IMG/VR virus record: IMGVR_UViG_2728369181_000002
Origin: a virus
Taxonomy: Duplodnaviria > Heunggongvirae > Uroviricota > Caudoviricetes
Strand: one strand, 5' to 3'
Length of the DNA: 29,192 nucleotides
Shown here: piece after piece, positions 2,957-25,143 of the stretch
How positions within the stretch are numbered: the stretch's first letter is position 1
Layout of the letters: each line of letters starts with the position of its first letter
Position numbers and translations under genes: made by a program
Notes under the pieces: model-generated
What the model was told of the DNA's origin: nothing
Seen by the model: the letters and a program-made list of their open reading frames with translations, nothing else
Databases searched by the model: none

Positions 2957-4035
2957 CAGAACGGGTCCTCCTGTACTCTGGCTTTTTTCTTTTTCCGCGC
3001 GCCGGGGGCTTCGGGTTCAGGCAGATAAGCATCAGGTGGGCCGACACGGATTTCCGTCAGGGTGCCGTTCTGGTCCTGAGTAAACGTGACTTCCGAGACA
3101 AGCAGTTCGGTATTGTCGAAACCACAGACCGGATCGAAGACAATCACCCGCTGGTTGGGTTGCCACAGCGTACCGTTACCCTGTCGCCAGCCCTGCACCA
3201 CATAGGTGGTTTCATCCGTCCGCGCCGCCCGTTGCCGGGCTTCAAAGTCCGCACGGGCAATACAGCCTGCCCCCGTAGCCTGCCCTGTCTGCCTGATATA
3301 CATCGGACGGTAACGGGCAATAAATGCGTCTTCTGTGCGGGCCCGCAGCGCGGTGGTGGTGGCCTCACCGAAATCATCGTCATTTCCGGCACGCTGCCCC
3401 GCCACCTGGTAAACTGAAAACCGCTCCCGGATACTCTTCTCCGTATCACAGGAAAGGATGTTTTCCCCAAGTACCAGCGCGGTATGTGCCCGCGTTGAGC
3501 CAATACCGCCAATCACCAGCCTGCCATGCGGGTCGTCGTAAGCCAGTGCCTGCTGCTGACCGAGTATTTTGTTGATCACCTCGATCACCGTTTCGCCGTG
3601 ATCAGGCTGGACATCCGGAATAACACCCGACGGCGCACCGTTGTTCACCACCTCAATGCCGAAAGGCGCAGCAAGCGCCTGCGCAATCTGTACCAGCGAT
3701 CGTCCGTTAAACTGTGTCGATTCGGCTGCACAGTCAATCAGGTCAGCGGTCAGACTGCGTCCGGCAATACCGGTGCTGACCGAACGGGCATCGTAACGAA
3801 CGGGCGTCGCCTCCACCCAGCCGGTGATCACCAGCTCATCACCAATCAGAACTTCCACTTTTGAACCATTTTTAATACGCGGCTGAAGCGTGGTGATACC
3901 CTCATCTCCCGGCCACTGGCGGGTGATCTCCACACTGAAATCCCGTGCCAGCCGTTCAATACCGGCACCGATGCGCACCGATGTCCAGCCATTCCACTCC
4001 CGGCCATTTACCCGTAGCGTGACGTTATCGTTCAT
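2956..4035 (-). CDS. tail/baseplate hub protein (Mu gp44 / P2 gpD-like)
   Basis: 359-aa ORF between the DNA-circulation-like gene and the V-like gene; ATG at 4035..4033. Confidence 0.5.
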   Translation of the reverse strand: MNDNVTLRVNGREWNGWTSVRIGAGIERLARDFSVEITRQWPGDEGITTLQPRIKNGSKVEVLIGDELVITGWVEATPVRYDARSVSTGIAGRSLTADLIDCAAESTQFNGRSLVQIAQALAAPFGIEVVNNGAPSGVIPDVQPDHGETVIEVINKILGQQQALAYDDPHGRLVIGGIGSTRAHTALVLGENILSCDTEKSIRERFSVYQVAGQRAGNDDDFGEATTTALRARTEDAFIARYRPMYIRQTGQATGAGCIARADFEARQRAARTDETTYVVQGWRQGNGTLWQPNQRVIVFDPVCGFDNTELLVSEVTFTQDQNGTLTEIRVGPPDAYLPEPEAPGARKKKKARVQEDPF

Positions 4036-5405
4036 TGCACTGGCACCTTCAGAGGGATCACCGGCACAAAGCCGGGATGTGTAATGGCATTGCGCCGGAT
4101 AATGTCCGCGTCACGCGCCGCGTTATCAAACCAGGTCGCCGCCAGCACCAGCGCGGGTAAAACCTCATCCGGCGTACGCTGAATGATCCGCGCAGACTGT
4201 TCAAGGCGCGTGTTGATATCCGCATTCAGATCTGCTTTCACCCGGCGCAGCGCCAGAAACAGCACATCACTGGTTGTACGGGACAACTCCTTATCAATTG
4301 CCGTATTCAGTGTGTCGCGAATGTCGGTCAGTTCTTCCCACGTTGGCAGGTCAACCGTGTTTTTCACCGCCGGTGCATTGTTCAGTGCCGGATGCGTGAC
4401 GGAAGGCCAGCCGGTGCTCTGCGCGGGTGTTGTTGACTGCCCCACTGCGGCATTCTGCATCACCGCGGAAGTTGTTGGCGCAGGCAATCGGGTAACGGCA
4501 TACGCCGCTTCGCTGATTGCAGTCGTACGAAGGGTGCTGGCAACCACGTTACGCTGCTGCGTCGCTGTGGCGGTGGTTTTACTATCCGTTTTCCAGACAC
4601 CGCGCGGTTGCAGATCGCTGCCGAGGCTGACACCGGAAAGCGTTTTGATCATGGTGACCAGGTCGCTGGCGTTACCATAAAGGCGCTTCCCGGTACGCCA
4701 CATTTTCTGCACCTGCTCAACGAAATTTTTGCCTGACGATGGCGGCGGCAGAAGTACCGAGATATCCCCCTGCAACAGCCTGGCGGCATCCGATACAGCA
4801 GAATCCACCACTTTCATCGCATCAGAAACATACCCCAGCATTATGCTGGCATTACCGATAACGTCGTTCTGCACGAAATCCGCCACACCATCGATACTGA
4901 AACCGCTGAAGCTGTCACTGATGCCGTCATCCAGTGCAGAACAGGATGACATCAGCGTCTGCGCCGTCGCCGCACCTGATGTGGGGTAAGAGAGTTCTCC
5001 TGCTTCGACAAACTTCAGGTCAAAGCGGACAATACGCCCTTCACTTTTCGATGTGCTGACCCGAACTTCCCCGTCAACACAGACTTTCAGCTCACCATAT
5101 GTCGGGTGGACAAGCGTGCCGGGACCGGGTTTATTCAGCGCGTCAATCAGGCGATCGCGCTGGTCAAAGCAGTCATCTCCCACCACATAAGCTGTGATGG
5201 ACGGGCGGAAAGTGACTTTTCCCAGATCTTCGGTATAGGGCTTGTCGCGGTTCGGGTATTCATGTGTTTCCACACGGCGACCGGTTCCCGCACTTTCTTC
5301 TTCAACCTTAAACGGCACACCTCGAAATGATGCTTCAAGTAGCTTTTCACGCCAGCCACTTCGAGAATCAGAGGATAGGTACGAAGAAATATGAGAAAAA
5401 TCCAT
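4032..5405 (-). CDS. tail protein of the Mu gp43 (DNA circulation protein) type
   Basis: 457-aa ORF with ATG at 5405..5403, directly downstream of the tape measure block in gene order. Confidence 0.5.
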   Translation of the reverse strand: MDFSHISSYLSSDSRSGWREKLLEASFRGVPFKVEEESAGTGRRVETHEYPNRDKPYTEDLGKVTFRPSITAYVVGDDCFDQRDRLIDALNKPGPGTLVHPTYGELKVCVDGEVRVSTSKSEGRIVRFDLKFVEAGELSYPTSGAATAQTLMSSCSALDDGISDSFSGFSIDGVADFVQNDVIGNASIMLGYVSDAMKVVDSAVSDAARLLQGDISVLLPPPSSGKNFVEQVQKMWRTGKRLYGNASDLVTMIKTLSGVSLGSDLQPRGVWKTDSKTTATATQQRNVVASTLRTTAISEAAYAVTRLPAPTTSAVMQNAAVGQSTTPAQSTGWPSVTHPALNNAPAVKNTVDLPTWEELTDIRDTLNTAIDKELSRTTSDVLFLALRRVKADLNADINTRLEQSARIIQRTPDEVLPALVLAATWFDNAARDADIIRRNAITHPGFVPVIPLKVPVQ

Positions 5406-5420
5406 GCCGTCACCTCAAAT

Positions 5421-5447
5421 AAAAACCGCGTGTAAACGCGGTTTTTT
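5421..5447. terminator. bidirectional intrinsic-terminator-like hairpin (AAAAA-CCGCG-loop-CGCGG-TTTTT)
   Basis: Stem ccgcg (5426..5430) pairs with cgcgg (5437..5441); flanked by an A5 run on one side and a T6 run on the other, so it has a U-tract in either orientation. Lies between the AT-rich moron and the next tail gene. Confidence 0.5.
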
Positions 5448-5461
5448 ATTAGGTAATAAAA

Positions 5462-5950
5462 TTAAAGATCATAATCAAAATTATGAGTATCTATTCTACA
5501 TGATGAATAAGCAATTCCGCTTTCACCACTAATATTTACGCCAGCCTTTACCTTCCCTGTCTTCGTAACATCAACAAAGAATTGCCCTCTTGGCATTTTA
5601 AATGCAAAAGAGAAACCAATAATTTCCGAGTCAAAGTCATTTTCATCCTCACTAATTGGTACAATAAAAGCCAATGGTGCAGATTGTGAGTTATTTTCAA
5701 AATCAAAAACACCAATTCCTTTATTAAACTCGTAGGATGCTTTTTTTATTAAAAGAGTTCCACTTGCCGACTTTGCTGGGCATATTACAGACAGTCTATT
5801 TATTCCCCCTACATCTAGATCTATATTCTTATCTGCTGAAGTTTTAACGTTATCTATAAAGTATGTAGCAAGCTGCTTTTCCGTTACTGGCTTCGCAAAG
5901 GAGTTTAATGGCAATCCTGCAGCCAACAACAATATAAACATTTTCTTCAT
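5462..5950 (-). CDS. hypothetical secreted protein (AT-rich moron inside the tail module)
   Basis: Start moved to ATG 5950..5948, which is preceded by AGGAGA; N-terminus MKKMFILLLAAGLPLNSFA is a typical Sec signal peptide; two Cys in the mature part; markedly AT-rich compared with the flanking tail genes. Confidence 0.6.
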   Translation of the reverse strand: MKKMFILLLAAGLPLNSFAKPVTEKQLATYFIDNVKTSADKNIDLDVGGINRLSVICPAKSASGTLLIKKASYEFNKGIGVFDFENNSQSAPLAFIVPISEDENDFDSEIIGFSFAFKMPRGQFFVDVTKTGKVKAGVNISGESGIAYSSCRIDTHNFDYDL

Positions 5951-5985
5951 ATTCTCTCCTACATTCAGCACAAACTTTACCACTC

Positions 5986-6016
5986 AATAACCCTACTTGA
6001 TTAAAGTAGGGTTATT
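5986..6016. repeat. perfect 13-bp inverted repeat (AATAACCCTACTT / AAGTAGGGTTATT) with 5-nt loop
   Basis: Read directly from the sequence; overlaps the tape measure stop codon (6015..6017) at the boundary with the moron. Confidence 0.7.
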
Positions 6017-7916
6017 ATCGTCTGAATGGAGAATACCCCACATCGTGCGTGATTTTCATCAGGGGATCGGCTTTGCCCGGTACATCAATTATCTTCATAC
6101 TTGGCGGAGCATTCTCGAACGTGACTTTCAGTTCGCTGTGCTGTGTCATGGAAGAAGATGGATTCAACAACGGAACATTGGGTTTGTACTGACTCAGGCT
6201 CGCCTGATACTGCTCGTACTCTTTACGATCAAAAAAAGGCGTCCAGTCTGAAGCCAGAAACAGCCCTTTATTATCCAGCCAGTTAACCGTATCTTCAGGA
6301 ACAACACTTTCCAGAGTATCTTTAACCGGCTCATACATCAGGGTTCCCAGAAAACCATATACCCCGGCCTTCCCGATAAAGCCGCGGCCTTTCCCCATCA
6401 ATCCCGTTTCTGCCGATACCTTCCCCAGCGTACGCATCTCTCTGGTCACTGCGGTAATGGATTTGGTAACGTCAGCAACCCATTTGGTTGTCATAAACAG
6501 GGCGATCGCTTTCAGAACAGTTTCCCATCCCCCCATCGCCTGCGCCGTTTCATCCACCACGCGCCAGACTTTTTTTATGACAGGACCTACGGTTTCCCAG
6601 TTATCAATAATGAGGTAAGCGCCACCGACCAGAAGAGCAATCAGCCCCTTAGCAGGCGTCATATTCATCACACCGCCGAGAACTTTCATGATTCTGGACA
6701 AAGAGCCTGCAGCGGCCCCCACTGTCAGTAAAGCCAGACCGATTTTAGCAATGGTCTTAACGAGCTCCGGGTTTTCACGGACAAACGTTCTCACTTCCTC
6801 AAGGAGCGGTTTTACCGCTTCAAGACCATCATTAACCTCAGGAAGAAACGTTTCCCCCAGAGTGGAAGAAATGGCATCAAGTTGATTTTGCAGAAGTAAA
6901 AGCTGGTTTTCCGTCGTCGCTGCCCTCGAAGCATATTCCTTCTGCATCGAACTGCCATACTGCTGGGAATCCGCAACCCGCCTGAAGTTGGTACGCAACA
7001 AATCAAGGTTAGTCAGCAGAGGTGCTATCGCGCCCAGAGACTCTTTCCCGAACAGGGCATTCAGCACAGCTGCCTGTTTTTCTTTAGGCACTTTAGCCAT
7101 CGCATCCAGTACAGACAGCATGGTGCCCCGGGCATCTTTCTGCATATCAGCAGCTAATTTCTTCGGATTGATCCGCAGAAAACGCAATGCCTGTTTCTGC
7201 GATTTTGTCGCGGAATTTCCCGCAGTCAGGGAAAGCATGAAGTTCTTGATCCCTGTGGCGGCAATTTCTGACTCCACACCCATCCCGGCAATGGTTGCCC
7301 CCATCGCCGCGATTTCGCCGGAAGCCACACCAGCAACACCACCTAAAGGACCAATACGCGTAACAATATCGGAGATTTTCTTCGCATTCGCCGGGCCGGT
7401 ATTACCAAGGTAGTTGATTTTGTCAGCCAGCCCGGCCACTTCATCCTGCGTCATATTAAACGCAGTACGCCACTGGGCCATCATCTGCCCGGACTCTTCA
7501 GCCGTGGTATCAAAGGCCACGCCCATCTTCACCGCATCAGTGGCAAACTGCATCAGTTCATCACGTGCAATCCCGGCCTGACCGCCAGCCGCCACAATTT
7601 CCGCGATCCCGTCTGCAGACATGGGAAGCTCAGTAGACAAAGCGCGTACCTGCTCCGTCATGGCCTTAAACGCATCCGGCGTATCCAGACCGTCCACCAC
7701 TTTGCGGACATCAGCCATCTTCGATTCAATGGTGATGGCTGATTTTACAGGGAGTGCCAGTGCCCCCATTATTGCAGTACCCGCCCCGGCAGCGCCTAGA
7801 GCAAGGCTGGAGACTTCTTTTTGAAACCCCTTAAGCTGACGCTGCATACCTTTAAGCGGGCCGGATAGCCTGTCAACGGCGGTGATGATGGCTTTCAGCT
7901 GAAAATTATCAGCCAT
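6015..7916 (-). CDS. tail tape measure protein
   Basis: 633-aa ORF, Ala/Gly-rich and predicted alpha-helical (MADNFQLKAIITAVDRLSGPLKGMQRQLKGF...); lies between the chaperone and baseplate genes. Confidence 0.8.
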   Translation of the reverse strand: MADNFQLKAIITAVDRLSGPLKGMQRQLKGFQKEVSSLALGAAGAGTAIMGALALPVKSAITIESKMADVRKVVDGLDTPDAFKAMTEQVRALSTELPMSADGIAEIVAAGGQAGIARDELMQFATDAVKMGVAFDTTAEESGQMMAQWRTAFNMTQDEVAGLADKINYLGNTGPANAKKISDIVTRIGPLGGVAGVASGEIAAMGATIAGMGVESEIAATGIKNFMLSLTAGNSATKSQKQALRFLRINPKKLAADMQKDARGTMLSVLDAMAKVPKEKQAAVLNALFGKESLGAIAPLLTNLDLLRTNFRRVADSQQYGSSMQKEYASRAATTENQLLLLQNQLDAISSTLGETFLPEVNDGLEAVKPLLEEVRTFVRENPELVKTIAKIGLALLTVGAAAGSLSRIMKVLGGVMNMTPAKGLIALLVGGAYLIIDNWETVGPVIKKVWRVVDETAQAMGGWETVLKAIALFMTTKWVADVTKSITAVTREMRTLGKVSAETGLMGKGRGFIGKAGVYGFLGTLMYEPVKDTLESVVPEDTVNWLDNKGLFLASDWTPFFDRKEYEQYQASLSQYKPNVPLLNPSSSMTQHSELKVTFENAPPSMKIIDVPGKADPLMKITHDVGYSPFRR

Positions 7917-15635: not shown

Positions 15636-17369
15636 TTAAAGCGAGCGGATCCCATAGGACTCAATGTGGTCAGACAGCGTGTCTTCTTTCTCGTACAGCA
15701 TGGCTCTGCCAACCGCCATAATCAGCGCAACTGCACCATCGATTTTGTTTTCCGCCTGCTCTTTGACGGGCTTCACCACATCATCGTTACCCGGAATGGT
15801 TTTGCCGACCACGTTGCCGATACACCAGGTCATGATGGGATTGCCATCATGATGAAAGCGCCCCGATTCAATTGCCGCTTCCAGCTCTTTCATCGGGTCG
15901 GACATGTTGGTGTAGTTCTGAATGATAGTGATGGGGTTCAGGTCTTCATCAGCAAGGTCATGTGACAACCCGGTCGCCCCGAAGGGGTCGATGGGTGACT
16001 CACTGACCGGGCTGATTTTGTTCGCCGCTTTGGCCTCCTCGAGGATGTAGCGATAATCCACCTCCGCACCATCGGTAACGGTCAGAACGCCCATTTCCAC
16101 CCATTTCTGAAAGCGTTCGGCTGTCCGTCGATCTTCATTTTTCTCGACGCTGTACACCGTGTCATACGGTACCCAGAAACGCGGGGCCACACTGTAGTAA
16201 TGCGTTTTACCGTCAATATCGCGGGTATAAAGTCGCGCCATGCTGTTCATATCCAGCTTACGCGCCAGGTCAAAGGCCAGAATGCACGGCTGCCCCTCGA
16301 ACTGCTCAAGGGTCAGTGATTTATCCTCGCAGCTCTGCCAGCTCACCAGGTTGAAATACGCCGAACGCGCCGACACCCAGATATTGAGGTGTTTTGTTTT
16401 AAAGACGTTTGCCAGACGGGCGTTATTTTTCGCACGCTGCTGCTGACTTAACAAAAATTCGCGATAAACCGACACGCCAATATTTGGATTGGCTTTTTCC
16501 AGCACCTGCGGGTCGGTCCAGTCGTCACCTTCATCAACGGTATAGATGATCCCGAACAGTTCATCGTTTGGTACCGAACCGTTGAGCATCTCGATGACTT
16601 CCCGCCGTTTGTCGTAGCACGGCCCCTCAATGTTGTACCCGGCGGTGGTGATAGCCCACATCAGTGGCTGACGTCGCGCCCCCATCCCGGTAAGCATCGT
16701 GGTATAAAGCGCATCGGTGGCGTGCTCGTGATATTCATCCACCACCGCACAGTGGGGTGATGAACCATCACCGGGGTTACCGATCAGCGGTTCAAACCGC
16801 GCGCCATCCTCCGGACGGTTCATGTTTGAGGCGTTAACCTCAATCCCGAACGCTTCCGTCAGCATGGGTGTGCGTTTACACATCAGTCGCGCCGGGCGAA
16901 AGACTTCCCACGCCTGTTTCTCTGTCGTGGCACCGGAATACACTTCCGCGCCAAACTCGTTATCACAGGCAAAACAATACAGGGCAACACCGGCAGAGAT
17001 TGCCGATTTGCCGTTCTTACGGGGGATTTCGGTATACACCTCCCGGAAGCGGCGCAGCCGGGACCCTTTATTGACCCAGCCAAACGCACAGCAGATCACA
17101 AAGAGCTGCCACGGCTCCAGCGTGATGGGCATCCTCTTGAATGCCCACTCCCCCTTGGTGTGTGGCAACAGCTGAATAAATTTCGCGGCCCGTTCAGCCA
17201 GGTCCTTGTCGAAGCGGTAACGAAACGACTTACTTTTTTCCGCCATCAGGTCATCAAGATGGCGCTGGCAGGCCTGAATCACAAACTGGCAGGCCACAAT
17301 CTTTCCGCGCACGACATCACGGGCATACTGATTGGCAGCATTTACGTTGGGGTAAGATTTCCGGCTCAT
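15636..17369 (-). CDS. terminase large subunit
   Basis: 577-aa ORF; ATGA overlap with the small-subunit gene; size and position upstream of the portal. Confidence 0.85.
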
Positions 17370-17876: not shown

Positions 17877-17962
17877 NNNNNNNNNNNNNNNNNNNNNNNN
17901 NNNNNNNNNNNNNNNNNNNNNNNNNNNNNNNNNNNNNNNNNNNNNNNNNNNNNNNNNNNNNN
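17877..17962. other. assembly gap (86 N)
   Basis: Run of N in the sequence, between the HNH gene and the small terminase gene. Confidence 0.99.
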
Positions 17963-18290
17963 TCTTCGCCTTATGACACGGCCAGCACAGACTCTGCAGA
18001 TTACTGTCAGCATCAGTGCCGCCATGCGCTTTAGGGATGATGTGGTCAACAGTTTTCGCCTCACGCACCACACCAGCACGCAGACATAACTGACACAGAC
18101 CTTTGTCACGCTTCAGAACACGCGCGCGGATACTGTCCCACTTCGAACCGTAGCCGCGCTGATGACGGGATTGTCCAGGTTTGTATTGCTTCCAGCCTTC
18201 GCTTTTGTGGCTTTCGCAGTAGCCTGAAGGGTCAGTAGTGGTATGGCGGCAGCCGCGAACACGGCAGGCTTTCGGGGTTCGTGGCGGCAT
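17963..18290 (-). CDS. HNH endonuclease (3' end lost in the assembly gap)
   Basis: ATG at 18290..18288; product MPPRTPKACRVRGCRHTTTDPSGYCESHK...CQLCLRAGVVREAKTVDHIIPKAHGGTDADSNLQSLCWPCHKAK has the Cys pairs and His/Asn pattern of HNH nucleases; its stop is not visible because the ORF runs into the N-run. Confidence 0.7.
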
Positions 18291-18341
18291 TAATGCTTCC
18301 CTTTAAGTTATTACGATGGAACAGACCATAGAAATGGCAAT

Positions 18342-18363
18342 AAAAAACCGCCCGGAGGCGGTT
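18342..18363 (-). terminator. rho-independent terminator downstream of the AT-rich moron
   Basis: On the minus strand, AACCGCC-TCCG-GGCGGTT (7-bp stem) followed by TTTTTT; located 20 bp after the stop of the 18383..18703 gene. Confidence 0.6.
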
Positions 18364-18382
18364 CAATTATCATCTCGATAAA

Positions 18383-18703
18383 CTAAATCAGATCACCAAT
18401 GTATTTTGCACTAATTGAAATTTGCATCTGAGGCATTCCGACCACAGATCCATTTAACAGGTAATCACGTCCTCGTTCCTGCAAAGAAAGACTCAATTCA
18501 AAGTTCTTTACCCCAGGGAAAACCGAGGTGACATTTAAATCATGCTGCGATACGCGCAGAATAAGTTGGCTACCGTCAATTTTTCCCTGATACGTAAAAC
18601 CAAAATCTCCGCCGTTTACTGCATTGTTTTTGACAACTACGGTACCATTACCAAAATCACGTTGATTGCTTCTGAAAACAACAAAATAGATACCATCTTT
18701 CAT
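18383..18703 (-). CDS. hypothetical protein (AT-rich moron between lysis and packaging genes)
   Basis: 106-aa ORF with no signal peptide; AT-rich relative to flanks; followed by its own terminator. Confidence 0.5.
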   Translation of the reverse strand: MKDGIYFVVFRSNQRDFGNGTVVVKNNAVNGGDFGFTYQGKIDGSQLILRVSQHDLNVTSVFPGVKNFELSLSLQERGRDYLLNGSVVGMPQMQISISAKYIGDLI

Positions 18704-18795
18704 GTGTAAAGCCCTTTAAAAGAGTCACCAAAATCAGGTGCTTTGTATCTATTGGGCCATCACATATCAAATCAAGGAACAAAACAAAGTTAACA

Positions 18796-19065
18796 TCATT
18801 TTTTTTGCATGATGTGACCACGCTCAACTTCAATCCTTCTGATGTCAGCTTTATCGGTATTACACTGCGCCAATGCAGACAACAAGGCGACATTCAGATC
18901 TAAGCTCGAGCCCCACGTAAAATGATCAGGTAAATCAGGCTGAGGGGTTTCAGCCGTCAGGCTGGCTGGTAACGGAACTACCGGAACCTGGACGTAAACT
19001 GTTCGCGTACTTCCGCAACCGGTCAGCAGCGGCAGCAGGCACAGGACGTGAAGCACAATCATCAT
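18796..19065 (-). CDS. Rz1-like outer-membrane lipoprotein spanin (o-spanin)
   Basis: Start placed at ATGATG 19065..19060 giving MMIVLHVLCLLPLLTGCGS (lipobox LTGC) followed by a Pro-rich segment; begins inside the Rz gene in another frame and extends past its end. Confidence 0.5.
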   Translation of the reverse strand: MMIVLHVLCLLPLLTGCGSTRTVYVQVPVVPLPASLTAETPQPDLPDHFTWGSSLDLNVALLSALAQCNTDKADIRRIEVERGHIMQKK

Positions 19066-19342
19066 CCGCAACAGCCACTTTGATATCTTCCTGGGTTCTC
19101 TGTGACTCCAGTGCGATCTGCTGTTTTGCATGTTGATTCGCCTCCTGAATGATGTTCGTTATTGCCATAGTACGCAGAACATTTGCGGTGATAGCCTCAG
19201 TAGAATCAGCTCGCTGTTCCGCAGCATCAGCACGCTTCTGCTCCTCCAGAAACTTTCCATGATAGTGATTCGCTGACCAGACAAGACCACCAGCGACACA
19301 AGCAATAAACGTTAAAATGAGCGCCCAATAACTCATCTTCAT
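18950..19342 (-). CDS. Rz-like inner-membrane spanin (i-spanin)
   Basis: 130-aa ORF with an N-terminal transmembrane helix (MKMSYWALILTFIACVAGGLVW) then a charged coiled-coil region; ATGA overlap with the endolysin stop. Confidence 0.65.
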   Translation of the reverse strand: MKMSYWALILTFIACVAGGLVWSANHYHGKFLEEQKRADAAEQRADSTEAITANVLRTMAITNIIQEANQHAKQQIALESQRTQEDIKVAVADDDCASRPVPAAAADRLRKYANSLRPGSGSSVTSQPDG

Positions 19343-19953
19343 ACCAGCAGCGCCGCCCGCGCCTTGTTGTATCGGACCTTACGATCCTCAATACCGTTCA
19401 AACCGCCGTTAATGATGCGCGTAACACGGTTAATATCGGCACCGTAGATCATGCAACCTTTAGAGGTGTAGAACCATGCAGCTGAGCGCGCAGCCTGTAG
19501 TTCCTGTTCCAGTTGTTCAGGTGAAGTCACCAGATCTAACTTCAGCGCCGCGCCACAGATGCGATAATTATGGAGGCCAGTGATTTGAATTAATCCTCTA
19601 CCACGATATTTCCAGCCATCACCTGGTGCTTTGTTACCCAGTCGGTTGCTATACACCAGATTGGCAATAGCATCCTGACGAGCTGCATGTCCGGATGTTC
19701 TGCCAAGGGCATCAGCCTGCTGCTGTGTGATCCTCTTTCCGAACGTCGCCACCAGCGCAGATGGTGTGTAGTTAAAATTTTCAACTACGGCGCTAAACCC
19801 CATCGACTCATGGCCTACCTGAGCGATAAACATTGCCTGATCCGCTGGTGCTGTAATGCCGAATTCCTTCATCGCCGCATCAATGTGCGGAAACCAGCGC
19901 GCAGCCAGCCCGGCGCTAATACCAGCCGCCTTTTGAAATAATTGTTGGTTCAT
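19339..19953 (-). CDS. endolysin, glycoside hydrolase family 19-like
   Basis: 204-aa ORF with FIAQVGHESMGF and GRGLIQITGLHNY segments resembling GH19 catalytic motifs; TAATG overlap with the upstream membrane-protein gene. Confidence 0.75.
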   Translation of the reverse strand: MNQQLFQKAAGISAGLAARWFPHIDAAMKEFGITAPADQAMFIAQVGHESMGFSAVVENFNYTPSALVATFGKRITQQQADALGRTSGHAARQDAIANLVYSNRLGNKAPGDGWKYRGRGLIQITGLHNYRICGAALKLDLVTSPEQLEQELQAARSAAWFYTSKGCMIYGADINRVTRIINGGLNGIEDRKVRYNKARAALLV

Positions 19954-20686: not shown

Positions 20687-20944
20687 TCAAATACTACCCT
20701 GTTGATGATTTCTCAGAAGCGAACTTGACTCCCAAGGGAAACTCAACTTTCCGTTAAAACCACCAGCAGACATTCGTTCAATTTCCACAGAAATATCACT
20801 GAGCCGTTCTTCAAGCTCTGCTTTTTCTTTTACCAGACGGTTATAGCGGCTTAGATGAAGCTTTTGCTGCTCCAGCCAGTCTTCAAGCTGTTCAACAGTC
20901 ATACCAGGGTTAAAAAAATATGGCTGCTGCTTTTCGCCCTGCAT
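20687..20944 (-). CDS. hypothetical coiled-coil protein (late-region moron)
   Basis: Start placed at ATG 20944..20942, preceded by GGAGG at 6-nt spacing (MQGEKQQPYFFNPGMTVEQLEDWLEQQKLHL...); 85 aa; AT-rich; lies between the candidate tR' and the holin. Confidence 0.45.
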   Translation of the reverse strand: MQGEKQQPYFFNPGMTVEQLEDWLEQQKLHLSRYNRLVKEKAELEERLSDISVEIERMSAGGFNGKLSFPWESSSLLRNHQQGSI

Positions 20945-20961
20945 TATTGACCTCCAGAAAA

Positions 20962-20986
20962 GCAAAAACCCCGCCGAAGCGAGGTT
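20962..20986 (-). terminator. candidate tR'-like terminator downstream of the late promoter
   Basis: Minus strand CCTCGC-TTCG-GCGGGG (6-bp stem with one G-U pair, TTCG loop) followed by TTTTGCTTTT; about 45-65 nt downstream of the candidate pR'. Confidence 0.4.
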
Positions 20987-21034
20987 TGTTATGATTTCGT
21001 TAACGGCAGACATACAAAGCCCATCGTTAGGAGA

Positions 21035-21094: not shown

Positions 21095-21847
21095 TCATCT
21101 CGTCACTTTTCTTAATTGCGCCTCAGCATATGCTTCTTCCTGCCAGCACTTTGTCACCAGTTTATCAATGACATCTGCATATCCTTTGTACCACTGATAA
21201 TCAGTCAGGTCCGGTACCAGCTTCTGGACATGATGCCGCGCCAGTGTGGTTGGTAAACGGCTAAACCGGTTTCCATTGCAACGCCCACAAATCTTATAAA
21301 CAGGCATGCCATGAAGCCGGGTTCTTTTTTCATCCAGGACAATACCTTTACCCTTACACCCTCTGCACGCTGTGCTGACTTCTCCCTTACCATGACAATG
21401 CTGACATAGTTCCTTCACCCACTCTTCCTTGATAACAGATTCCCCGTTTCTGGAGTGTTTCACCACTTCGCGCAATACATTATGAAATCCAGTACCAGCA
21501 CAATGCTCACAGCGAGCCTTACTTGCCGCAGATCTGGAATAATCAGCAAAGGCAAAATTCACAAGGTAAGGAATGATCTGTAGCCGGGTTTCTTCACTCA
21601 ATTTGTTCAATGTCGGGTTATCCAGTGCCATCGCGTAATTGAGCAGACCTTCAATCGCAAACTGAGGATCCTGAACACCAACTTTTGCCAGGAATAAGGC
21701 AAACCCAAGCGGTGCTTTCGACTGCACCATCCCCTGCGCAGCCATCACATCCGTAATCGTTAAACCACCCGAGCCTGTCGCCGGTGCGTCATCGCTCAGT
21801 TTTGGAGATTTTGGGGAGTAATATTTTGGTAAGGCTTCAAGGTTCAT
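21095..21847 (-). CDS. antitermination protein Q-like (contains four CxxCxGxG zinc-finger repeats)
   Basis: 250-aa ORF at the canonical Q position, after the nin-like genes and before pR'/lysis; contains CEHCAGTG, CQHCHGKG, CRGCKGKG and CGRCNGNR; GGAG ribosome-binding site. Confidence 0.6.
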   Translation of the reverse strand: MNLEALPKYYSPKSPKLSDDAPATGSGGLTITDVMAAQGMVQSKAPLGFALFLAKVGVQDPQFAIEGLLNYAMALDNPTLNKLSEETRLQIIPYLVNFAFADYSRSAASKARCEHCAGTGFHNVLREVVKHSRNGESVIKEEWVKELCQHCHGKGEVSTACRGCKGKGIVLDEKRTRLHGMPVYKICGRCNGNRFSRLPTTLARHHVQKLVPDLTDYQWYKGYADVIDKLVTKCWQEEAYAEAQLRKVTR

Positions 21848-22756: not shown

Positions 22757-23590
22757 TCAATGAACGGTATCGAGCAGCTTTAACAGCTCAGGGAATCGGG
22801 ATTCGAAGAAATGCGGCTGCGTCTCGCGCGGATTTGCGGGACTGGTGATGTTCTTGCCGAACATGCAACCTTTCGCTGTCAGCGACCAGAATTTTTTGAT
22901 GTTGTTAATCGCGGTACGGCTGTATCGTTCGCGCTGCTCGACGATCCCCAGTTTCACCATCTGGTGATATGCCTGATTAGCCGTCAGGCGTATACCATAC
23001 TGTTTCAGCAGTGCACTCAGTGACAGTGTCGGGCGACTTGAGCCNNNNNNNNNNNNNNNNNNNNNNNNNNNNNNNNNNNNNNNNNNNNNNNNNNNNNNNN
23101 NNNNNNNNNNNNNNNNNNNNNNNNNNNNNNNNNNNNNGAGTTTCTGACAGGCACCAAGCACTGAAGAGTTAGACAGGTTTAACTCCCGGCGCATAAAGTC
23201 CAGCAGGATCACGCCAGCCTGCATCTTGTCAGCAGCCTGTCCGGATAATTTTTCCGGTGCGCTGGTTACCATATCGAAAGTACGGATCACCTTCAGATGG
23301 AATGACGGGCTGATCCACATTGCATAGGCATACACCAGTTCCTTGCAGACATAAGTTCCCCGTTCATTTCCCCCATGAATCACACTCACCGGATCAACAC
23401 CCAAATTCTGGGTGTTGGTCAATTCATGAACAAGTTCAACAGTTTGTTGGCTGGAAAGAAACTTTCCTGGCTCCTTGGTTCTGGCATTGGCACCAGATGC
23501 TACTGCTGCGCGATGCAGATCGTTCAGGCTGTAACGCCCATAAGCATCACGACGAACTTCAATACCATCAATGACCATCAGATTATTCAT
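22757..23590 (-). CDS. KilA-N domain protein (interrupted by assembly gap)
   Basis: Start placed at ATG 23590..23588, preceded by AGGAGA (MNNLMVIDGIEVRRDAYGRYSLNDLHRAAVASGAN...); N-terminal region resembles KilA-N DNA-binding domains; the reading frame passes through the N-run 23045..23137. Confidence 0.55.
   Translation of the reverse strand: MNNLMVIDGIEVRRDAYGRYSLNDLHRAAVASGANARTKEPGKFLSSQQTVELVHELTNTQNLGVDPVSVIHGGNERGTYVCKELVYAYAMWISPSFHLKVIRTFDMVTSAPEKLSGQAADKMQAGVILLDFMRRELNLSNSSVLGACQKLXXXXXXXXXXXXXXXXXXXXXXXXXXXXXXXGSSRPTLSLSALLKQYGIRLTANQAYHQMVKLGIVEQRERYSRTAINNIKKFWSLTAKGCMFGKNITSPANPRETQPHFFESRFPELLKLLDTVH
23045..23137. other. assembly gap (93 N)
   Basis: Run of N inside the KilA-N gene. 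Confidence 0.99.
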
Positions 23591-24649: not shown

Positions 24650-25143
24650 TAAGCCCCCACGTAATTCCCTGACAGATACCACTCTTCACCCGATGCAGCG
24701 CGCTTGCTGCTTTTCCGTAAGCACCGCTCACGACGCGCCAGAAAATTGTTTCGTTCTGGCTGGGAGTGGCTTTCACGGAATGCCGCCATCCACACGGTTG
24801 CAGCACGACGGTATAAGCCCCTGGACTCCAGTTCTTCAGCCTGGCGGGTCAGGCACAAAATCACCCGTGGATCGTTAGTGCCGACATAGAAATTGCGCAC
24901 AGGTCTGGTTTCACGAACTGGTTGTGGTTCCGGCTCCTGCGCTCTCTCAGTCAGGCGCGGGAAATGTCTGCGTGTATCTCCTTCACAACGGTGAGCCACA
25001 CGCCCACTCTGACGTAACTTGCTTGCTGACTGCAGAACGCGCTGCCGTGAGTAACCTGCAAAAGCATCCGCAATGTCTCCGGAAGTACACCCCGGATGGG
25101 CTTCAATGAATTTCTGAACTTCATTCAAAAGACTCATGATCAC
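24649..25143 (-). CDS. PerC-like transcriptional regulator (tentative)
   Basis: 164-aa ORF, start GTG 25143 (GTGA overlap with the O-like stop) or ATG 25137; C-terminal LESRGLYRRAATVWMAAF...NFLARRERCLRK resembles the PerC-family RRAA-W and CLRK signature as recalled. Confidence 0.4.
   Translation of the reverse strand: MIMSLLNEVQKFIEAHPGCTSGDIADAFAGYSRQRVLQSASKLRQSGRVAHRCEGDTRRHFPRLTERAQEPEPQPVRETRPVRNFYVGTNDPRVILCLTRQAEELESRGLYRRAATVWMAAFRESHSQPERNNFLARRERCLRKSSKRAASGEEWYLSGNYVGA

Follow-up and report, generated by a model that had tools for sequence, protein, structure and literature searches.

The DNA analysed here, called the window below, is a stretch of 29,192 nucleotides with 100% identity to Escherichia phage SKA5. 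Among 5426 complete E. coli genomes, 54 carry prophages that match it with at least 99% identity, ETEC H10407, UPEC and STEC strains being among them. Our subject is a reading frame for a protein of 106 amino acids in the late region. The features that frame it are given in the direction of transcription; all are on the minus strand.

24652-25143, minus strand: PerC-family gene (Pfam detects PerC only)
21095-21847, minus strand: Q antiterminator (Pfam Antiterm, E = 1.7e-54)
lysis region, minus strand: two holin-like genes
19339-19953, minus strand: GH19 endolysin
18950-19342, minus strand: Rz spanin gene, upstream of the 106-aa reading frame
18796-19131, minus strand: Rz1/LysC spanin gene, embedded in Rz, with its stop codon at 18796; closes the lysis cassette
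18704..18795, minus strand: 5' intergenic region, 92 nt from the Rz1 stop codon to the start codon of the gene
TTGATT 18775..18770, 18 nt, TAGATA 18751..18746, minus strand: weak, putative sigma-70-like pair, found by eye
18741..18724, minus strand: weak hairpin, read by eye
18716..18712, minus strand: Shine-Dalgarno sequence AAGGG, read by eye
18383..18703, minus strand: gene for the GrlR-family protein, 106 aa, ATG start, stop codon at 18383-18385
18335..18364, minus strand: intrinsic terminator, beginning 18 nt past the stop codon
about 17940-18290, minus strand: HNH endonuclease gene, the first gene of the packaging module (Pfam HNH, E = 3e-15, and RefSeq annotation)
downstream of HNH, minus strand: P27-family small terminase gene
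15636-17369, minus strand: TerL gene, in the downstream packaging module

The 106-aa gene is thus co-oriented with the Q-dependent late operon and lies between Rz/Rz1 on its upstream side and the HNH and terminase genes on its downstream side, which confirms the position between lysis cassette and packaging genes that a first-pass annotation of this DNA had given it. The 3' end of the HNH gene is hidden by a run of Ns at 17877-17962.

The reading frame is a real gene. A word-indexed search returned 91 homologues, nearly all of them 105-107 aa long, and the median pairwise dN/dS of the family is 0.06 (0.16-0.18 for the window gene against its nearest relatives), a ratio so low that the GrlR-like gene must be under strong purifying selection. 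Much of what had been said of the frame itself was correct: it opens with an ATG on the minus strand at 18703 and ends at 18383, and it is AT-rich, with a GC content of 39.3% (0.39) against 52.6% (0.53) for the window. This places it within the lowest 3.4% of the window's 321-nt windows, in a trough that extends from about 18350 to 18950 between flanks with a GC content of 0.51-0.56. Direct reading of the N-terminus, MKDGIYFVVFRSNQRD, likewise bears out the reported absence of a signal peptide, as it contains neither a hydrophobic leader nor a lipobox cysteine. The protein has a pI of 8.0 and a net charge of +1, compared with 4.7 and -8 for GrlR and a median pI of 5.8 for the family.

The gene had also been described as an orphan without a recognisable domain, and here the outcome is different. 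Over residues 1-105 the protein matches the PDB entries for GrlR, 2OVS/4KT5 (phmmer, E = 1.6e-10); it matches the NCBIfam model PRK14051 (GrlR; NF010652) with E = 2.4e-10 and 40.5 bits, and PHROG 2483, a family of unknown function, with E = 6e-53 over 106 of 106 positions. The Pfam family PF16518 (GrlR) is matched with E = 6.6e-6 and 26.7 bits, the gathering score being 26.8. On Pfam alone, 0.1 bit below the gathering score, the assignment would be a marginal one. RefSeq already holds an identical protein, WP_000651450.1, under the name "GrlR family regulatory protein" in the 54 E. coli genomes, whereas the copy in SKA5 is labelled "hypothetical". Membership in the GrlR family (PF16518, PHROG 2483, PGAP name) is therefore already known and annotated in databases, and the label "orphan" has to be dropped. 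The suggestion of a perhaps undescribed function has no support as it was worded, since the protein belongs to a known family, though the interest taken in its role in prophages stands.

The family is large. Hosts of the homologues include Salmonella, Citrobacter, Klebsiella, Enterobacter, Serratia, Pantoea, Yersinia, Cronobacter, Arsenophonus, Sodalis and others, and a PF16518 match has been precomputed for many of the proteins. An exhaustive profile search extends the superfamily to 486 clusters (50% identity) at E <= 1e-3, one of which is GrlR of the LEE (65 bits, E = 3.9e-13). The members are almost entirely single-domain proteins. Among the best 150 matches there are few longer ones; one of these is fused to a STAS-like DUF4325 domain, and the other long relatives in this set have no recognisable extra domain, so that fusions give no functional hint. 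In an alignment of 24 members, the invariant or nearly invariant residues include M1, K2, G4, I5, Y6, F10, G18, G20, the NGGD stretch at 30-33, Y38, G40, H54 and I102-G103. The literature search on phage-borne GrlR homologues found nothing beyond one sentence in PMC9979310, which mentions uncharacterised GrlR "orthologs" in other enterobacteria that have 30-42% identity and no assigned function.

Structure prediction agrees with the profile searches. An AlphaFold model built with 24 homologues has a pLDDT of 93.7 and consists of eight strands with an unstructured loop at residues 54-66, as in the GrlR-superfamily barrel with its eight antiparallel strands and the long plug loop that joins strands 5 and 6. 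The top PDB matches of the model in Foldseek are the GrlR chains 4kt5_A/B and 2ovs_A with a TM score of 0.90 (rmsd 1.8 A and 28% identity to 4kt5_A), and the next match falls to 0.53. The profile and structure searches that the first-pass annotation had recommended thus lead to the same family (PHROG 2483, E = 6e-53; TM 0.90), and the protein is predicted to be a cytoplasmic eight-stranded beta-barrel of the GrlR type.

To see how the gene behaves elsewhere, we retrieved 92 related loci, of which 80 came from IMG/VR and 12 from genomes; the viral contigs with a match numbered 140 in all. In most of these loci the gene directly follows Rz/Rz1 or another spanin, precedes the terminase genes and has the orientation of the late genes. 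In Proteus-type loci such as L056 (the name refers only to base composition, these being the low-GC loci of about 35-40% GC), it follows a DNA methylase gene and precedes holin, lysozyme and Rz, a slot that presumably resembles the one occupied by stx in Stx phages. Solitary chromosomal copies also occur: one after yfdE-like oxalate-catabolism genes (L014), one beside fimbrial genes (L007) and one between genes for an Fe-S protein and an MFS transporter (L013). The GC content of the gene is below that of its flanks in nearly all loci. The borders of the conserved unit can be seen in L044 and L046, in which the coding sequence is 94-95% and the terminator 84-89% identical to the window at the nucleotide level, and the 5' region is unrelated.

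The same slot has other contents in E. coli prophages that keep the same HNH and Rz1 genes. It is empty, with a spacer of 26 nt, in strain LWY6 (L097), filled by an unrelated gene for 168 aa in strain MSB1_6C (L098) and by an unrelated gene for 145 aa in strain CRE1493 (L099). Both alternative genes have a terminator-like hairpin of their own, and neither has a match in Pfam or PADLOC. This synteny comparison, flanks kept and slot content varying, bears out the earlier view of the gene as accessory cargo in a bor-like slot.

The intrinsic terminator that had been placed at 18342..18363 is indeed present. Its stem at 18364..18345 reads GAACCGCC-TCCG-GGCGGTTT, with eight pairs, five of them G-C, and a TCCG loop, and it is followed by the T-rich tail TTTATTGCCA. 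By loose criteria, 59 of 62 diverged loci have a stem-loop and a T run after the stop codon; by stricter criteria, 34 of the 43 non-redundant diverged loci have a terminator, compared with 2.4% of random 60-nt windows. The terminators of the diverged loci comprise 25 distinct hairpin sequences.

Presence in some relatives and absence from others, a downstream terminator of its own and a deviant base composition are traits of morons, and the GrlR-like gene with its terminator fits a moron cassette, promoter aside. Lambda bor, the morons of HK97 and HK022, and stx are likewise cargo that flanks the lysis cassette, deviates in composition and is present or absent among relatives, and an own terminator is shared with lambda bor and other late-region morons. 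The likeness to bor ends with the product and its orientation: lambda Bor is an outer-membrane lipoprotein encoded on the opposite strand, whereas the 106-aa protein lacks a signal peptide and lipobox and its gene is co-oriented with the late genes. No relationship to the Bor/Iss family emerged from the Pfam, PHROG and NCBIfam searches, all of which matched GrlR families only, and the statement that the protein is neither Bor-like nor a lipoprotein was right.

The upstream side of the cassette is less uniform. When 18704-18795 was scanned with a promoter tool, no consensus promoter emerged, and across the loci the generic sigma-70 scores of the upstream regions are no better than those of shuffled sequences (mean 8.24 against 8.05). 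In the window, 42 nt separate the end of the -10-like hexamer from the ATG. The best-scoring -10-like hexamer of other subfamilies lies 33-44 nt before the ATG and precedes a small hairpin of varying sequence; a perfect TATAAT is present in L005, L066-L069, L074, L076, L086 and L088, and several of these end 33-38 nt before the ATG. Over 24 UTR clusters, the 5' regions carry more structure than shuffled sequences do (mean z -1.7, p = 6e-5). As the window's own 5'-UTR hairpin is weak (z +0.7), we do not count a conserved 5'-UTR hairpin as part of this locus. No known RNA in Rfam reached its gathering threshold anywhere in the window, and the matches in 18200-18900 are at chance level.

These results bear on whether the gene is simply an ordinary late gene, transcribed only under the control of Q and with a role in lytic growth such as the tuning of lysis or host shut-off. 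Its orientation matches the late operon, it nearly always adjoins the lysis cassette, either before or after it, and both the missing consensus promoter and the shuffle-level scores are what such a gene would have. However, a terminator conserved immediately behind the gene is of little use to a transcript that is antiterminated, the gene is missing from sister prophages or replaced in them, solitary copies sit in chromosomes away from phage genes, and the perfect TATAAT precedes the gene in several subfamilies. We regard an exclusively late role as unlikely, and because of the terminator and the solitary chromosomal copies we favor transcription of the cassette from a start of its own.

What the product might bind is best approached through GrlR. 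The GrlR dimer sequesters GrlA by binding its helix-turn-helix (PMC9979310, PMC4933562), and both GrlA binding and repression depend on the surface motif EDED at residues 46-49 (PMC1868957). GrlR also represses in the absence of GrlA, via another target, and this repression persists when H-NS is missing and in a non-EPEC background, E. coli K-12 (PMC9979310). With LEE GrlR (L0044 of EHEC, EPEC and Citrobacter rodentium; PDB 2OVS, 3E3C, 4KT5) the 106-aa protein has in common its fold, homology over the full length, the N-terminal MKDGIY and the GGD and YQG motifs; both are small, cytoplasmic, single-domain proteins without a DNA-binding motif.

The differences concern the parts of GrlR that are known to matter for GrlA. 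EDED46-49 aligns to D43-gap-G44-S45-Q46 in the 106-aa protein, and the position is variable and non-acidic among the 24 aligned family members. LEE GrlR is acidic (pI about 4.8) and so complementary to the basic GrlA, whereas the 106-aa protein is not acidic; the latter also lacks the C-terminal tail beyond residue 108 or so. With EDED absent and the charge different, the known binding chemistry of GrlR is not conserved in the 106-aa protein, and these same two observations argue for a target other than GrlA. The NCBIfam score of 40.5 bits is far below the equivalog cutoff of 205. Judged by its sequence, then, the protein is a GrlR relative and not LEE GrlR proper. The hydrophobic cluster of the GrlR dimer, I7, I23, I25, V39 and I107, corresponds to I5, T21, V23, T37 and I102; three of the five equivalents (I5, V23, I102) are hydrophobic and conserved and two are threonines, and dimerisation appears plausible from this comparison.

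The genomic context differs as well. In the LEE reference contig (L096), a PF07180 CaiF_GrlA gene comes next after grlR and forms the grlRA operon with it, whereas the window gene lies in a phage late region with Rz1 and HNH as neighbours and no grlA next to it. A tblastn search with GrlA from the LEE contig gave chance matches only (E >= 3.8) in the window, in the 40-kb prophage of ETEC H10407 and in the 92 related loci, and no CaiF/GrlA-family gene is annotated in the 40-kb prophage; we therefore rejected a GrlA/CaiF partner encoded in cis.

Two other candidates for a partner were considered. Small reading frames downstream of the gene in some loci were dismissed because they overlap the terminator. 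The PerC-family protein contains a stretch, SGDIADAF, that resembles RNDIAEAF of GrlA, but the BLASTP match has E = 0.28 and Pfam finds PerC only, so it is kept as no more than a candidate lead. Within 6 kb on either side of GrlR-like genes, the PerC-family gene is found only in near-identical prophages.

Together, the data suggest a model in which the GrlR-family barrel travels as a mobile moron cassette and would sequester a regulatory partner other than GrlA. We take this to be the best explanation and give it a probability of roughly 45%. In the lysogen, the cassette would be transcribed on its own, and the terminator would keep this transcription out of the HNH and terminase genes; during lytic growth, Q-modified polymerase would read through the terminator. 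The protein, which like GrlR has no DNA-binding motif, would bind and sequester another macromolecule, the likeliest target being a DNA-binding regulator of the host or the phage that is neither GrlA nor encoded adjacently. This activity may correspond to the GrlA-independent repression reported for GrlR, which shows that a conserved target besides GrlA is within reach of the fold, and by analogy the phage proteins might have the same activity. At the level of the protein, the mechanism is modelled on GrlR because GrlR is the only characterised relative. A comparable case, already likened to GrlR, is VtrC of Vibrio parahaemolyticus, a small calycin-like barrel with a hydrophobic chamber that binds and regulates a transcription factor (PMC4933562). 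VtrC differs in being periplasmic, in binding bile salts and in pairing with a membrane protein, VtrA, and no homology between it and the 106-aa protein was detected.

The calycin-like shape also allows for a barrel that binds a ligand, holding a small hydrophobic molecule or a lipid in its cavity and acting as a sensor, carrier or sponge. The cavity of GrlR is hydrophobic and contained Triton X-100 in the crystal (PMC1868957, PMC4933562), and lipid binding by GrlR is mentioned in PMC4933562 with reference to Jobichen 2009. The remote Foldseek matches of the model include lipocalins, siderocalin, fatty-acid-binding proteins and the barrel of the cyclic-dinucleotide receptor Cap15, and the motifs GIY, NGGD, Y-x-G and SVF recur throughout the 486 clusters without a conserved partner gene. 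These remote matches are weak, however (TM 0.45-0.55, E >= 0.005), the conserved motifs, located in strands and in a tight turn, may have a structural role only, and no functional ligand is known even for GrlR. Such a ligand-binding role in place of sequestration seems to us improbable.

More doubtful is a far-reaching variant of the regulatory model, according to which the partner-less GrlR-like proteins of phages are the ancestral and main form, their target is a conserved host factor, and they serve to reprogram host transcription; the repression that GrlR exerts in K-12 would then be a remnant of this activity. If read this way, GrlR of the LEE is one offshoot among the 486 clusters.

The first-pass annotation had also raised an anti-phage role. 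In lambdoid morons, this kind of slot and architecture is typical of defence or exclusion cargo, and the alternative genes that fill the slot in sister prophages would suit a role of the GrlR-like gene in anti-phage defence, superinfection exclusion or counter-defence. PADLOC-DB 2.0 gave no sign of it: neither the 106-aa protein (0 families at E <= 1) nor the alternative cargo nor the fused relatives had a match. Moreover, GrlR, the sole characterised relative, is an antagonist of a transcription factor, and no partner or effector gene travels with the GrlR-like gene. Such a role is, in our judgement, distinctly unlikely.

Least probable of all is that the protein does the work of LEE GrlR, binding GrlA and repressing type III secretion in LEE-positive hosts, since family membership, the fold and the presence in the same prophage of a gene from the PerC family, named after a LEE regulator, are outweighed by the low equivalog score, the missing EDED motif and acidic surface, and the occurrence of the gene in LEE-negative hosts such as ETEC H10407 and in genera without a LEE (Serratia, Providencia, Klebsiella, Xenorhabdus).

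The result is in the main corrective: the gene is not an orphan, it is already annotated by family, and it occupies an ordinary variable slot. Our additions are descriptive, namely the conserved terminator, the swappable slot, the solitary chromosomal copies, and the lack of both a GrlA partner and the EDED motif. If the proposed role of the cassette as a carrier of a sequestering GrlR-type protein is true, many Enterobacterales have temperate phages that spread a small regulator of this type as self-contained cargo, and the GrlR family would be a widespread route of regulatory cross-talk between prophage and host. It could then also help to find out on what GrlR acts, independently of GrlA, in pathogenic E. 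coli.

In E. coli prophages that share this packaging module, the junction between Rz1 and the HNH gene serves as a hotspot for cargo. Strain LWY6 has no gene in the slot. Strains MSB1_6C and CRE1493 carry unrelated genes there (168 aa and 145 aa), each followed on its 3' side by a terminator-like hairpin. Searches of Pfam and of the PADLOC anti-phage defence models gave no match for either of these alternative slot genes.

Equivalents of window 18291-18795 in the comparison loci
L097, 929-954
L098, 986-1492
L099, 1056-1493

Two stretches of the window are masked.

17877-17962, N run
23045-23137, N run

The first conceals where the HNH gene ends on its 3' side, as well as the junction between HNH and small terminase, and it gives rise to artefactual long ORFs with X residues.

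Further small or AT-rich genes, and a PerC-family gene, are found elsewhere in the same prophage.

4032-5405, DNA-circularisation gene
5462..5950, - strand, ORF of about 162 aa with signal peptide MKKMFILLLAAGLPLNSFA
6015-7916, tape-measure gene
20687-21013, - strand, small AT-rich ORF between Q and the first holin
24652-25143, - strand, PerC-family gene, YfdN-like (Pfam PerC, E=7.8e-9)

The ORF at 20687-21013, at whose site the RefSeq annotation has an 85-aa hypothetical protein, takes the promoter-proximal late slot; Pfam and PADLOC searches returned no match for it. The DNA-circularisation and tape-measure genes flank a second AT-rich island (5300-6100, GC 0.35-0.39), with a trough deeper than that at the GrlR-family gene. 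The product of the ORF in this island is 'hypothetical' in RefSeq and had no match in a Pfam search, and the gene is a candidate secreted moron of the tail module. The PerC family, like the GrlR family, takes its name from a regulator of the LEE pathogenicity island, for PerC an activator; the N-terminus of the prophage protein contains 'SGDIADAF', which resembles 'RNDIAEAF' of the GrlA HTH, a likeness that is not significant (E=0.28).

GrlR-like genes also stand alone, outside any prophage (loci L014, 1836-6321; L007; L013). In Klebsiella sp. BIGb0407 a solitary copy lies 3' of a yfdUVE-like cluster of oxalyl-CoA decarboxylase, transporter and CoA-transferase genes, and in Serratia aquatilis and Enterobacillus solitary copies adjoin chaperone-usher fimbrial genes. 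Rarely, the GrlR domain is fused to an N-terminal extension, as in the distant superfamily members P0206 (211 aa) and P0185 (226 aa). The former has a STAS-like DUF4325 domain, the extension of the latter had no match in Pfam, and PADLOC searches yielded no match for either protein.

A small hairpin 20-45 nt 5' of the start codons of GrlR-like genes recurs across subfamilies with differing stem sequences, often with a TATAAT-like hexamer on its 5' side. Loci with such a hairpin in the 60 nt upstream include L003, L011, L044, L047, L048, L052, L063 and L073, among others, and the copy in the window itself is degenerate. Across 24 UTR clusters of GrlR-like genes, the mean folding z was -1.7 (p=6e-5). 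The upstream hairpin of GrlR-like genes may act as a 5' stabiliser or have a regulatory role.
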